A DNA stretch of 64,000 bases from a virus, in IMG/VR virus record IMGVR_UViG_3300017769_000001, positions 1 to 64,000 of that record, one strand, 5' to 3'. Positions 1-16,028 of this stretch are shown here, in pieces. The notes under the pieces are model-generated. The model was not told the origin of the DNA, made no database searches, and saw nothing but the letters and a program-made list of their open reading frames with translations. Each line of letters opens with the position of its first letter. Position 1 is the first letter of the stretch. Position numbers and translations under genes: made by a program.

Positions 1-69
1 AACTCTTTGATGAACAACCGCTCACAGCTCAGAAGCGTCGTTCTATCCATGATGAGTTTGTGAGGTTTT

Positions 70-603
70 ATGATTTCAAAGATAACCGACTATTACATAA
101 ACGATGGAGACTTCCAAACTTATAGAGAATTCATCAATTTTGTTCATCGCTCTAAGAGTTATGACAAAGACATCGAAGACTACGTCTATGGATTGTGGGT
201 TTCTATTCGAGACGGTAGCTGTACTTTTTACAGGTCTGAAGTTAATGGGACTGCGGGCGAAATAAAGGAACTAAGCCATTCAGAAGTATACGGCAAGCTG
301 AAGGGAGTTGCACTCAGTATAACCTCCAAAAGATCAAACTTCGATTACCGGGTAGGTCGGGAATTCTTGTACAATACGAACATAGTACATAAAACCATTT
401 GGAATAAACTGGTCGATGATCGACACTTTGTTGAGTCGGTTATCGGGTTGGACATATCCACTGAGGGTGGCCGAATACAGTTACGTACCGAGATATCTAG
501 GTGGTCGAAGTATTTCATATACGGCGGTGTCGAAGATATTGACAACGCGCTATCCAGCGCAGAGAGTATCAAGGATATTATGAGATTGGAGTATCTTCTA
601 TGA
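70..603 (+). CDS. hypothetical protein (C-terminal Leu-tag family)
   Basis: 177-aa ORF with GAGG RBS, ATGA-coupled to primase; ends IMRLEYLL. Confidence 0.7.
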   Translation: MISKITDYYINDGDFQTYREFINFVHRSKSYDKDIEDYVYGLWVSIRDGSCTFYRSEVNGTAGEIKELSHSEVYGKLKGVALSITSKRSNFDYRVGREFLYNTNIVHKTIWNKLVDDRHFVESVIGLDISTEGGRIQLRTEISRWSKYFIYGGVEDIDNALSSAESIKDIMRLEYLL

Positions 604-12413: not shown

Positions 12414-13970
12414 ATGGAGGTTCCTTTGTCCACGCTAAAATGCCCTAAGTGCTACAGCAGTAAAGTAAGACGACATTCGTACACAGAATCAAGAAAGCAA
12501 CGTTGGTCTTGTGGCGATTGTGGTTTCAGGACAGTAAATCCCCTCGGCATCGAGCAGTTCGATCAAACCATCGACCACACCGCAGTGTCAAATAAAATCA
12601 AGAGCGTAAAGAAATCAACCCGGTGGGTTATTGTTTCTGCTCAGAACGCAACTCCAGTCCACACTGGATTTTATGACACACTCAAATCATATTGCGAGCT
12701 CAACGACGCAGAACTGATTGTTATCCCGTTCCGGTATAAAAACCCGACATCCGTATTCACCGATAAGGAATACGAGTGGTGGCACGAGAGTATTGTCGAC
12801 CACATTGTCGACCGCCGATACGAGCTTTGTAAAGGCGTTGTTCTGTTGGGTGACATACAGATCCAACCAACAGCAAAATCACCTCTCAGCGGACTTGAGG
12901 GGTTCACTGGTGCCAAATCGTGTATCGTGGGTCACCCGAAGTACGAGTTCAAGACTGTTGCAACTCGCCAAGGCGAAATGGCGAAGATTATGACAACAAC
13001 TGGTGCAATAACTGTGCCGAACTACACTCGATCAAAAGCCGGTAAGACTGGACACCACCATCACCAATATGCGGCAACTGTTGTCGAGAGTGATGGGGAT
13101 CAATTCTACATTCGACAGGTAACCGCGAATGAAGATGGTTCGTTTATCGACTTGGATAAAGTATATCGTCCGAATGGAACCGTCGATGATGCTCCGCGAG
13201 CAGCAACTTTGGTACTCGGCGATTTACACCAGTGGTGGATCTCCAAAGAGGTTGATGAAGCTACCTTTGGCGACAACGGTCTTGTGAACCTTCTGAATCC
13301 TGAGAAAGTTTTCATTCACGATTCAGTTGACGGGTTCTCCATCAGCCATCACCATCGAAACGACCCGTTTATCATGCACGCAAAGCATCAAAACGGAACT
13401 GGAAACATCATGGATGAGTTGACGGACTTTTCTCAATTCATGAACGAGCGGATGCGGGATGATACAGACTATGTGGTGGTGACTTCAAACCATGACGATC
13501 ATATCACTCGATACATCAAAGAGACTGATTGGAGGAAGGATCCGGAGAACGCGGAGTTCTATCTGGAGACAGCTCTTGAAATGATTCGAGACAACCGGAT
13601 GGTAGAAGGAGGAACGTCTACAATCCGCCCATTCGACTATTGGATGGAACGATTGTCACCAGACCTCAATATCATCAATCGAGAAACAAGCTTCGAAGTT
13701 CTTGGTGTCGAGCACGCATATCATGGTGATATTGGGCCAAATGGAGCACGAGGGTCAACCAAGAACCTGAGCCAGATCGGGGTTAAAGTTACATCCGGTC
13801 ACGGACATTCTCCGAGAGTTATCGATGGTGCTTACACCGTTGGTGTGTCTACGGGAAGAATGGCTTATGCTTCTGGCGGGCCTTCTGGATGGTTGAACAC
13901 ACACTGTGTACTCTATGCAGATGGAAAGCGTTCATTGATTCACATCATAAACGGGAAGTTCCGATCTTAA
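12414..13970 (+). CDS. calcineurin-like metallophosphoesterase (T5 A1-like) with N-terminal Zn ribbon
   Basis: SAQNATPVH, GDLH, HD, SNHD, HGD and GHGH motifs; CxxC...CxxC N-terminus. Confidence 0.7.
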   Translation: MEVPLSTLKCPKCYSSKVRRHSYTESRKQRWSCGDCGFRTVNPLGIEQFDQTIDHTAVSNKIKSVKKSTRWVIVSAQNATPVHTGFYDTLKSYCELNDAELIVIPFRYKNPTSVFTDKEYEWWHESIVDHIVDRRYELCKGVVLLGDIQIQPTAKSPLSGLEGFTGAKSCIVGHPKYEFKTVATRQGEMAKIMTTTGAITVPNYTRSKAGKTGHHHHQYAATVVESDGDQFYIRQVTANEDGSFIDLDKVYRPNGTVDDAPRAATLVLGDLHQWWISKEVDEATFGDNGLVNLLNPEKVFIHDSVDGFSISHHHRNDPFIMHAKHQNGTGNIMDELTDFSQFMNERMRDDTDYVVVTSNHDDHITRYIKETDWRKDPENAEFYLETALEMIRDNRMVEGGTSTIRPFDYWMERLSPDLNIINRETSFEVLGVEHAYHGDIGPNGARGSTKNLSQIGVKVTSGHGHSPRVIDGAYTVGVSTGRMAYASGGPSGWLNTHCVLYADGKRSLIHIINGKFRS

Positions 13971-14041
13971 CACGTCAGAGGGTTTGAAAGTTAAATAAGT
14001 TCTGGGGGTGTCTCCAGAACTTATTTTATGAGGTACAGAAA

Positions 14042-14206
14042 ATGAACAACCGAAATCTAGTCCATAAGAACGCTTTGAAGTTCCAGAAATGCGAACAATT
14101 CAAAGACCGCAAGAAAGCCAAAAAGAAAGGCTACTTGAAGCACAAGCCCTCTAAATCGGAGGGTTTTTTATTGACTCTTATTTCTGTTTTCGGTATGTTC
14201 TCATGA
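14042..14206 (+). CDS. small basic ArfA-like protein (absent from the ORF track)
   Basis: GAGG RBS; MNNRNLVHKNALKFQKCEQFKDRKKAKKKGYLKHKPSKSEGFLLTLISVFGMFS; reads through a terminator. Confidence 0.55.
   Translation: MNNRNLVHKNALKFQKCEQFKDRKKAKKKGYLKHKPSKSEGFLLTLISVFGMFS
14144..14169 (+). terminator. intrinsic terminator inside the small basic ORF
   Basis: AGCCCTCT-AAATC-GGAGGGTT stem followed by a T run. Confidence 0.7.
14171..14199 (+). promoter_or_regulatory. sigma70-type promoter
   Basis: TTGACT-17-TATGTT. Confidence 0.55.
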
Positions 14207-14610
14207 CTTACGATCAGTGGAGAGAAACAATGGCAATGATCAGGTGGGCATCAGACTCAGATGTTTATGTGTATGAATCTTTCAACGGATATGTTGTGCA
14301 CATTGCTGGTGCTAGATGGAAGTTTTCTGAAGAATACCCATGTCCTGTACTGGGAGACTATATCAACACCGGAAGACTGAGTGAGTACAATAAAGACTGT
14401 ACGGAAGCTTATGAACATGCGGAGTTGATTGACATTGAAATGGAAGAAGCTGGAAGAACTTTCTCATTTGAAAACTTAATCAGTGTTCGAAGCCTGCTAT
14501 TGACTTTGAAGGAAGAAGGGTTCATGATACCTCAATATGGGTTGGATAGAATCCAACAAGAGATAGAGAGAACCTATGACAATCGAAAATCTGATAAAAA
14601 CCCTGAATGA
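14203..14610 (+). CDS. hypothetical protein
   Basis: 135-aa ORF; true start may be a downstream Met after GGAGAG. Confidence 0.65.
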   Translation: MTYDQWRETMAMIRWASDSDVYVYESFNGYVVHIAGARWKFSEEYPCPVLGDYINTGRLSEYNKDCTEAYEHAELIDIEMEEAGRTFSFENLISVRSLLLTLKEEGFMIPQYGLDRIQQEIERTYDNRKSDKNPE

Positions 14611-16028
14611 TGTAAAATCCAACACTTCGACCAAGAAGAAGGAAAAAATTCTCGTTCAGGCTTTTGAAGACGAGTCGGTAGCACCGCTTCTACATCAAGT
14701 TCTTACCCTCGCACTATCGCCATCATTTCAGTATGGGATGACGACAAGCGAAGACGAGGTGATGAACGTACCCCCAGCAAAAGATCCGATGAGTTTCATT
14801 GAACTGATGGATTATATTGAAGAAGAGGCTCCGTTCCGTTCCAATGATAAGAAGGCACATGTTCTTTCTTTGATTCGTTCTCTGGAATGCTTTTACCAAA
14901 CGTCAATTGCAATCGGAGTTATCAATAAGGACATCAACATCGGCATTGGTGCAACTACGATCAACAAAGCGATCAAATCAGCAAGAACGAATCTGCTACC
15001 TTTGCGTATTTTGAAGCCGATGAAAGCTTTCAGCGAGCGCGATATCGACATCGACAAATTCTTCGAAAAGAACGCCCTTTCAGTCATTCAACCGAAAATT
15101 GATGCTGCTCGTGCGTTTATGGTTATCGTTCCAAAAAAGAATATCGGATACTTCCTATCTGCAAATGGTCGGCGAATTGACTGTTTCACACACCTGACAG
15201 ATCCGGTGATCAAGCAGTTCCAAAACAGGTATAGTAGCGAGGGGTTCGAGTCATCCATCATTGACGGGGAGCTGATTGCTGGTGACTATACTTCCGGAGA
15301 ACTGGTCTATTACAACAGGCAGAAATCAAATGGGATGTTGAACAAGGCGATTCGTGGCACCATCGACGAACAGGACGCCAGAAAGTTCCACTTCATTGCT
15401 TGGGATCTGATTGATGGTATTGGAACTGAAGACGATCCGGAACTTCCGTTATATGACGATACGCGGATGCTTCAAGACCCGTACTACGACAGGTTTGAGC
15501 ACCTTGAAGATTTCATCACAGCTGCAAACGAAGAAACTGAAACTTCAATGTTATCTCTGGATCTGCAAGTTCATCTGATTGAGTCTCAGCTCGTTTACAA
15601 TGAACAGCAAGCCAGAGAATATGTTGAAAAGATTTTTCAACAAGGCGGCGAAGGTGCTGTACTGAAGGAAGCCAACCACCGATATACCCCGAAGCGGTCT
15701 CGTGATCTCATCAAGATGAAGAAGCAGTTCATGGCTGATGTTCGAGTCACTGGTGTCAATGAAGGGAAAAAACAAAGGAACCCTTGGGTCTGTTTCATAT
15801 GCAACCGATGATGGCTTGATTGTTGGTGATGTGTCCGGCATTGACGACGGAACCAAAGCGATGTGGTGGAATGACCCTGAGATCATCATCGGGAAGGTCA
15901 TCGAGGTTCGGTACATGGAAGTGACTGACGATAAACGGACAGGGTGTAAGACTCTGTATGGGCCTGCTGTGTTCATCCGGGTCAGAGACGACAAAGACGA
16001 AACTTCTTATCTGGAGGAACTGGTATGA
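14576..16028 (+). CDS. ATP-dependent DNA ligase, interrupted by a +1 frameshift near 15770
   Basis: motif I QPKID, IIDGEL, FIAWD, GEGAVLK, IKMK in 14576..15811; OB-fold GTLGS...VSG...IGKVIEVRY...FIRVRDDK in 15738..16028. Confidence 0.88.

Follow-up and report, generated by a model that had tools for sequence, protein, structure and literature searches.

The first 64 kb of a 148,739-bp IMG/VR viral record (a 149-kb uncultured phage; this 64-kb stretch is referred to as the window) contain a mini-gene that belongs to the Pfam family DUF7230 (PF23876) and whose reading frame runs through an intrinsic terminator before the first stop codon is reached. The best reading of this arrangement, to which we give an about even chance of being correct, is that the phage makes a ribosome-rescue factor of the ArfA/BrfA type that is gated by tmRNA. 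New here would be that such a gated gene is phage-borne and lacks the GKGS loop. ArfA (YhdL, PF03889) is the RF2-dependent alternative ribosome-rescue factor of beta- and gammaproteobacteria. The features of the locus on which the argument turns are the following.

12414 to 13970, plus strand: A1-like gene (phage T5 A1, DNA transfer protein); phrog_1745, E 7.6e-151
13994 to 14025, plus strand: strong hairpin followed by a T-run; 14-bp stem, -18.4 kcal/mol, z -5.4
14030 to 14033, plus strand: GAGG ribosome-binding site, read from the sequence, 8 nt before ATG 14042
14042 to 14206, plus strand: DUF7230 ORF of 54 codons; the protein starts with MNNRNLVHKN and ends with GMFS
14042 to 14152, plus strand: conserved basic core, residues 1-37 (MNNRNLVHKNALKFQKCEQFKDRKKAKKKGYLKHKPS); PF23876, 30.2 bits versus a cut-off of 27
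14144 to 14169, plus strand: intrinsic terminator in frame, encoding K-P-S-K-S-E-G-F-L; kept in 6/6 assemblies
14170 to 14203, plus strand: putative read-through tail LTLISVFGMFS, a variable spacer with 45% nucleotide identity, insertions and deletions
14204 to 14206, plus strand: TGA, the first in-frame stop, 35 nt beyond the T-run
14219 to 14224, plus strand: GGAGAG ribosome-binding site of the phrog_13573 gene
14230 to 14610, plus strand: phrog_13573 gene, downstream and conserved; E 4.9e-10

The match of the ORF at 14042-14206 to DUF7230 lies above the gathering threshold of the family, and it connects ORF residues 1-37 to profile positions 1-35 of 42. When the phage's own genome was searched, the same ORF scored 29.3 bits on DUF7230. 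Judged by these matches, the ORF is a real gene that codes for a tiny and very basic protein of the DUF7230 family. The initial annotation had described the ORF with its GAGG site and a hairpin, and had stated that the frame crosses a terminator before any stop codon; all of this could be read directly from the sequence. Nine pairs are formed between 14144-14152 and 14158-14166 around a loop of 5 nt (14153-14157), the T-run extends from 14164 to 14169 and the stop follows at 14204. The in-frame hairpin has a folding energy of -11.9 kcal/mol (z -3.3), which was equalled by 1 of 200 shuffles. The reading frame is open through the terminator, and there is no in-frame stop upstream of the TGA. Transcripts ending in the T-run would encode a peptide of ~42 residues without a stop codon, and ~42 residues is also the length of the Pfam model of DUF7230. 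An AlphaFold2 model of the monomer showed three short helices at low confidence (pLDDT 68.5).

To judge the conservation of this layout we used the close relatives L005-L009, which are independent assemblies (76-80% identical), giving six assemblies including the window. Across these six, the coding core is 73% identical at the nucleotide level; the hairpin reaches 94%, and identity falls to 45% past the T-run. Within the core, variation at third codon positions is extensive (28 of 31), yet the peptide is kept. Three positions of the stem vary and all of them remain paired, with G.U replaced by A-U or G-C, and U.G by C-G. The hairpin and T-run were retained in all five relatives, and the frame is open through the hairpin in six out of six. 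Since the relatives thus keep the stop-less layout, the objection raised with the initial annotation, namely that homologues might stop before the hairpin, does not apply to the close clade. All relatives keep ...KHKPSKSEGF and then differ in both sequence and length, with whole ORFs of 48-70 amino acids. Nowhere in the locus are nucleotides better conserved than in the hairpin and T-run, and the tail drifts freely; on this comparative evidence we take the in-frame terminator to be under selection. Because the sequences of the relatives diverge directly after the T-run, the stretch 14170-14218 is read as a drifting spacer and the hydrophobic tail as its read-through, which does not appear to be selected. 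The tail had been put forward as an ArfA-like feature, a comparison that has to be given up considering that neither its sequence nor its length is conserved among the relatives.

The same comparison bears on the reality of the missing stop, for which the initial annotation had considered a sequence error. Homopolymer errors are possible, since the ligase gene of this assembly appears to be frameshifted within an A-run. Nevertheless, no stop precedes the T-run in any of the six assemblies, which were obtained independently from different samples, and one T fewer in the run would create a stop at TTTTTATTGA, which is still past the T-run. An assembly or sequencing artefact is therefore exceedingly improbable, and the apparent frameshift in the ligase gene does not touch the finding, as the six assemblies share the stop-less layout.

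The order A1-like gene, DUF7230 gene, phrog_13573 gene and ligase gene is fixed by the A1-like gene and was recovered in L005. The strong hairpin at 13994-14025 separates the A1-like gene from the mini-gene and probably serves the former as terminator; L005, L007 and L009 have a hairpin at the same place with a different sequence. We saw no convincing promoter in the interval between the terminators at 13994-14025 and 14144-14169, and the TTAAATA that had been noted with the ORF turned out to be placed inconsistently in the relatives. A search of Rfam recovered no known RNA family in the region 13.5-14.7 kb and no tmRNA-like match in the region 52.5-53 kb. The next gene had been assigned a start at ATG 14203, and the 135-residue ORF called from that codon overlaps the stop of the mini-gene. 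As the conservation of the protein begins at ATG 14230 in the alignment of L005-L009, and a GGAGAG site accompanies this codon, the data favour it as the codon at which the phrog_13573 gene really starts. The 'terminal repeat' of the record consists of a 123-bp overlap only (window 1-123 versus genome 148617-148739). It is an assembly overlap, consistent with a circular or permuted assembly, and the coordinate origin is consequently arbitrary.

ArfA and BrfA are both made from non-stop mRNA, which results from RNase III cleavage or from termination inside the ORF, and their products are tagged by tmRNA and then degraded (PMC8012679, PMC6881298). The Bacillus subtilis gene for BrfA (YqkK) has its rho-independent terminator within the ORF, ~9-12 codons ahead of the stop; the truncated peptide is the active product and its level is held down by trans-translation (PMC6881298). 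The window gene shares with BrfA the terminator within the coding region, but the sequences are unrelated (Pfam at E<=1 gave DUF7230 only) and organism and lineage are different. The likeness to ArfA is broader. It includes the tiny, stand-alone and very basic character of the protein, an N-terminal segment of the N-P-[VI]-A-K type, an aromatic residue, a C-terminal K/R-G...Y-x-[KR]-[KH]-x-K segment, and a hairpin that lies within the 3' end of the ORF or spans it and is expected to produce non-stop mRNA; moreover, bacterial DUF7230 copies end in an ssrA-like Y-x-x-A-A. Unlike ArfA, the window peptide has no PF03889 score and no GKGSY loop, the gene is phage-borne and the profile similarity is marginal (P 0.008-0.018 to viral ArfA and none to bacterial ArfA). 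Members of DUF7230/phrog_1359 match the window ORF in size and in their basic core. Many of them (Acj61 gp3 and several viral members) stop normally, whereas in the window clade the terminator precedes the stop.

On the model of these systems, RNA polymerase would stop at the in-frame terminator, around 14169-14173, and most transcripts would lack a stop codon. Ribosomes would then reach the 3' end with the finished peptide (...KGYLKHKPSKSEGF) still on the tRNA, and the host tmRNA-SmpB complex would tag the peptide, leading to its degradation. Were trans-translation saturated or blocked, possibly as a result of the infection flooding the cell with broken host mRNAs, untagged peptide would build up. 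In other words, the peptide would probably accumulate only when the tmRNA system of the host is overloaded. In analogy to ArfA and BrfA, it would then occupy the empty mRNA channel of stalled ribosomes and recruit a release factor, by which the ribosomes would be freed for phage translation. The early-gene context provided by the A1-like gene would fit a need for ribosome recycling during host shut-off, and the mini-gene may likewise be linked to the tRNA array. A closely trailing ribosome could suppress a terminator that lies inside an ORF, which counts against gating.

In fact, the gene could be of the ArfA type and yet be ungated. In that case the terminator would be leaky or suppressed, and a read-through product of 54 residues, or a normally terminated one, would be made constitutively in infection. 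The modest hairpin (-11.9 kcal/mol) would be in line with this, and the short phage forms of DUF7230 and ArfA that have ordinary stops (L001, L155, L160, L167) indicate that phages do not need gating. However, ungated expression is hard to reconcile with a hairpin and T-run that are the best-conserved part of the locus ahead of a drifting tail, and full-length ArfA has been found to be unstable in E. coli through its hydrophobic tail (PMC8012679). We consider it improbable.

The description of the ORF as ArfA-like stood up in part. DUF7230 could be tied to ArfA via an intermediate, gp3 of Acinetobacter phage Acj61, but the ORF itself gave no match to PF03889 (gathering threshold 25.5 bits) at E<=1. 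The same profile found no match anywhere in the phage genome, and the window ORF is outside PF03889. The K-G-K-G-S-Y-x-R loop is absent from the window peptide, which has KKKGYLKHK instead; the 19 bacterial and 13 viral ArfA sequences compared have G-K-G-S-Y and the next R without exception. Against bacterial ArfA, hhalign yielded a probability of 0.2%, the HMM scores versus the ArfA cores did not exceed those of shuffles, and pairwise global alignments gave z values of -1.3 to 3.1, meaning no detectable homology. The profile search that had been proposed as a check thus produced a DUF7230 match and no ArfA match, with the profile and shuffle tests against bacterial ArfA being negative.

The comparison with viral ArfA gave a different picture. 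Alignment of DUF7230 with viral ArfA by hhalign resulted in P values of 0.008 and 0.018, and pairwise comparison in z values of 2-3.6, the latter only for forms with an NPVAK motif. Acj61 gp3, annotated as hypothetical, has a DUF7230 score of 47.3 bits. It shares 63% identity (E 3e-11) with the viral peptide L158, which itself scores 41.7 bits on ArfA; the two differ by a 3-residue deletion in the GKGS loop. In addition, three viral ArfA peptides of 36 residues (MQNPVAKEVRTPKFRQRVVKPRKGKGSYSRKEKRNA and kin) had DUF7230 as the Pfam family ranking second (E 0.02-0.3). Since the viral sequences bridge the gap to ArfA, DUF7230 can be read as belonging to the ArfA superfamily, in which it would form a branch without the GKGS loop, and we regard this as likely. 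The link between gp3 and the window's own subfamily is weaker. A BLASTP comparison of the window peptide and gp3 found nothing, and the connection consequently rests on the model of Pfam together with a P of 0.0012 for gp3 against a family profile built around the window ORF.

A resemblance was also noticed to SmpB, of which the basic tail probes the empty mRNA channel (PMC8012679). The sequence FDKRQAIKQR in its C-terminal tail (DKR motif) resembles FKDRKKALKR of DUF7230 by eye only; the HMM score was no better than that of shuffles, making this a resemblance and not a relationship.

To outline the family, a profile was built from the relatives of the ORF and searched against 1.8 billion representatives. 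In this way 1603 clusters were recovered at E<=1e-3, mostly proteins of 40-70 residues. None of the papers in the literature searched mentions DUF7230, a search of NCBIfam returned nothing, and the solved structures gave no match when searched by sequence or by profile. Megablast, blastn and tblastn of the region or the peptide against the phage collection were without a match, the lysine-rich core probably having been masked by the low-complexity filter in those searches; tblastn with ArfA L068 or DUF7230 L001 was equally unproductive. The ESM Atlas provided a weak lead (0.82) to a viral cluster with ArfA in 18% of its members. Chromosomal copies were found in marine Gammaproteobacteria, with Arenicellales, Cellvibrionaceae, Oleiphilaceae, Hahellaceae and Marinobacterium among them. 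In genomes of the Cellvibrionaceae type the gene lies in the core context trxB-ftsK-lolA-rarA-crcB-DUF7230-serS. The bacterial DUF7230 is a stand-alone gene of the core genome (crcB-DUF7230-serS), and no partner gene is conserved around the 27 bacterial copies inspected.

These family data bear on the possibility that the ORF encodes a leader peptide acting mainly in cis, with translation through the hairpin setting the balance between termination and read-on into the phrog_13573 and ligase genes. The position of the ORF would suit such a role: terminators bracket it at 13994-14025 and 14144-14169, conserved early genes follow immediately downstream, and a ribosome on the hairpin would block the formation of the latter. 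A pure cis device would, however, not conserve the peptide in the way observed over 1603 clusters, and the family includes stand-alone bacterial genes that have their own terminators and no downstream operon. We therefore hold a leader function to be quite unlikely.

Sorting 63 distinct DUF7230 loci by the layout of their 3' end at the DNA level revealed three arrangements. Around 12 of the 63 have a hairpin and T-run directly past the basic core and a stop far downstream, like the window gene. The expectation formulated earlier, that homologues keep an in-ORF terminator, was borne out by all six members of the close clade and by the other lineages among these ~12 loci. The loci of this type carry unrelated hairpin sequences (L024, L055, L061, L062, L128, L047 and the window clade). 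In another ~14-17 loci the stop is placed within a long hairpin. The remaining loci, comprising about half of the family and including the phage copies L001, L120 and L129, have an ordinary stop 1-9 codons past KHK and no hairpin. Given that about half of the DUF7230 genes have ordinary stops, gating is not universal. Many of the best 146 representatives show the footprint ...KHK-P-x(5-9)-G-F-[FLS], with a junk tail behind it. The stop-less layout takes an extreme form at L047:706-1620 (minus strand), where a bacterial DUF7230 ORF has a hairpin past its core and the frame runs without a stop into the next gene, which is short-chain dehydrogenase-like and has a signal-like start.

For comparison we collected true ArfA genes. 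The bacterial set consisted of 22 PF03889-positive genes in 401 genomes of an order that was sampled around one DUF7230-carrying Cellvibrionaceae genome. These genes displayed the same three 3' layouts as DUF7230: a long hairpin with the stop in its loop, a hairpin of 12 bp within the ORF, or a hairpin and T-run 15 codons ahead of the stop (L081, L084, L085: KASKYSCSEAFFM...). Furthermore, 24 IMG/VR viral contigs (L148-L171, two of them of 151 and 158 kb) were found to encode ArfA-like GKGSY peptides; ten of these were checked, and all ten scored above the Pfam cut-off of ArfA. The phage ArfA genes L157, L153 and L166 have a terminator before the stop and those of L151 and L152 a stop within the T-run, and others are short forms with ordinary stops. 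No report of a phage-encoded factor of the ArfA type was found in the literature searched. The genomes carrying DUF7230 possess tmRNA and SmpB and lack ArfA. Within the 401 genomes the overlap between DUF7230 and ArfA was nil (0 shared of 21 and 24), which, with ~1.3 expected, is not significant. An ArfB-like third RF-1 domain protein occurred in two of five DUF7230 genomes, without a pattern.

A further parallel concerns the C-terminal ends. Many bacterial DUF7230 members end in Y-x-x-A-A (YQIAA, YSIAA, YPLAA, YRQAA), and ~20 of the best 146 representatives end in AA. The Y-x-x-A-A end, which resembles the ssrA tag YALAA, is shared by most of the loci whose stop falls within a long hairpin. 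In five carrier genomes, the tag encoded by tmRNA was ANDDNYALAA (three times), ANDESYALAA or ANDDNYGAQLAA. Likewise, most ArfA ORFs of the 401-genome set end in ...YRQAA, ...LLAA or ...KAA. Full-length ends of the Y-x-x-A-A type (YRQAA, YFLAA, YQIAA, YPLAA) are found in ArfA L064-L085 and in DUF7230 L034, L043, L051, L056, L057, L059 and L063. One ArfA and two DUF7230 genes have an identical stretch of 14 nt in common (TATCGCCAAGCGGC, encoding YRQAA), but the pairing register of their 3' arms differs. The last two positions are encoded by several different Ala codons, which points to selection on the peptide. The Y-x-x-A-A end looks like a degron built into the read-through product; the ArfA/BrfA literature examined contains no mention of such a degron of ArfA or DUF7230.

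In a number of cases the DUF7230 module occurs in the context of larger proteins. It was found C-terminal of, or inside, larger phage proteins (L003:1942-3111, L137:1-705, P0149, P0150, P0165), and in L003 it is situated behind a cytidylyltransferase-like domain together with a weak, sub-threshold match resembling the C-terminal part of phage ProQ. A second group is formed by lysine-rich proteins of 141-585 residues (P0046, P0095, P0106, P0121, P0135, P0144, P0169), in which the DUF7230 module comes first and is followed by repeats such as GLWxxIHxKRKRGE; by their sequences these look like true fusions. In one bacterial genome (L053:1471-2172) an RsmD-like 16S rRNA methyltransferase carries the N-terminal half of DUF7230 (as far as DRKKTAK) as an in-frame fusion, a single case that may be a gene-fusion artefact. 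With respect to the fusions to larger proteins, a general RNA- or ribosome-binding peptide fits as well as a rescue factor does.

Accordingly, one may suppose that the basic protein has another job, as a binder of RNA, DNA or the ribosome or as a modulator of host translation. The hairpin would then be an overlapping terminator or attenuator of the early unit, and the non-stop transcripts a tolerated by-product. Apart from the fusion of the module to unrelated larger proteins (L003; P0106, P0169), such a role would be compatible with the ordinary stops in about half of the family, with bacterial neighbourhoods that lack a conserved partner, and with a window peptide that has no direct similarity to ArfA. 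On the other hand, the stop-less layout recurs with unrelated hairpins in several lineages, the Y-x-x-A-A ends are frequent in both DUF7230 and ArfA and hard to explain without selection for regulation through tmRNA or proteolysis, and Acj61 gp3 ties the family to ArfA. On balance we consider another job unlikely.

Returning to the tmRNA-gated rescue factor as the preferred reading of the window gene, a more far-reaching proposal can be made for the family as a whole, which we advance tentatively as something short of an even bet. DUF7230 may represent a large and overlooked GKGS-less branch of ArfA, providing back-up rescue in marine gammaproteobacteria and in many phages, with a fail-safe of two layers. 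In the first layer, truncated messages would give rise to a product that is tagged by tmRNA; in the second, full-length messages would yield a product with a built-in Y-x-x-A-A degron. The only product to survive both layers would be the untagged, truncated peptide. The phage gene would then act as a sensor that turns the rescue factor on exactly when the infection saturates or disables trans-translation of the host.

If this is true, a large family of unknown function gains a testable role in ribosome rescue, and a virus carries its own back-up rescue factor, wired to the tmRNA state of its host. The non-stop-mRNA switch described for ArfA and BrfA would be widespread and, in bacteria, joined to an encoded ssrA-like degron. 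Trans-translation is an antibiotic target, and undetected back-up factors would bear on the question which bacteria tolerate its inhibition.

Finally, the ATP-dependent DNA ligase gene downstream of the mini-gene is split (window 14576-16028). The ORF at 14576-15811 corresponds to residues 6-374 of the L005 ligase (459 residues) and the ORF at 15738-16028 to residues 372-458, with the change of frame near 15770, within the A-run. The split could come from an assembly error in the homopolymer, from decay into a pseudogene or from programmed slippage.
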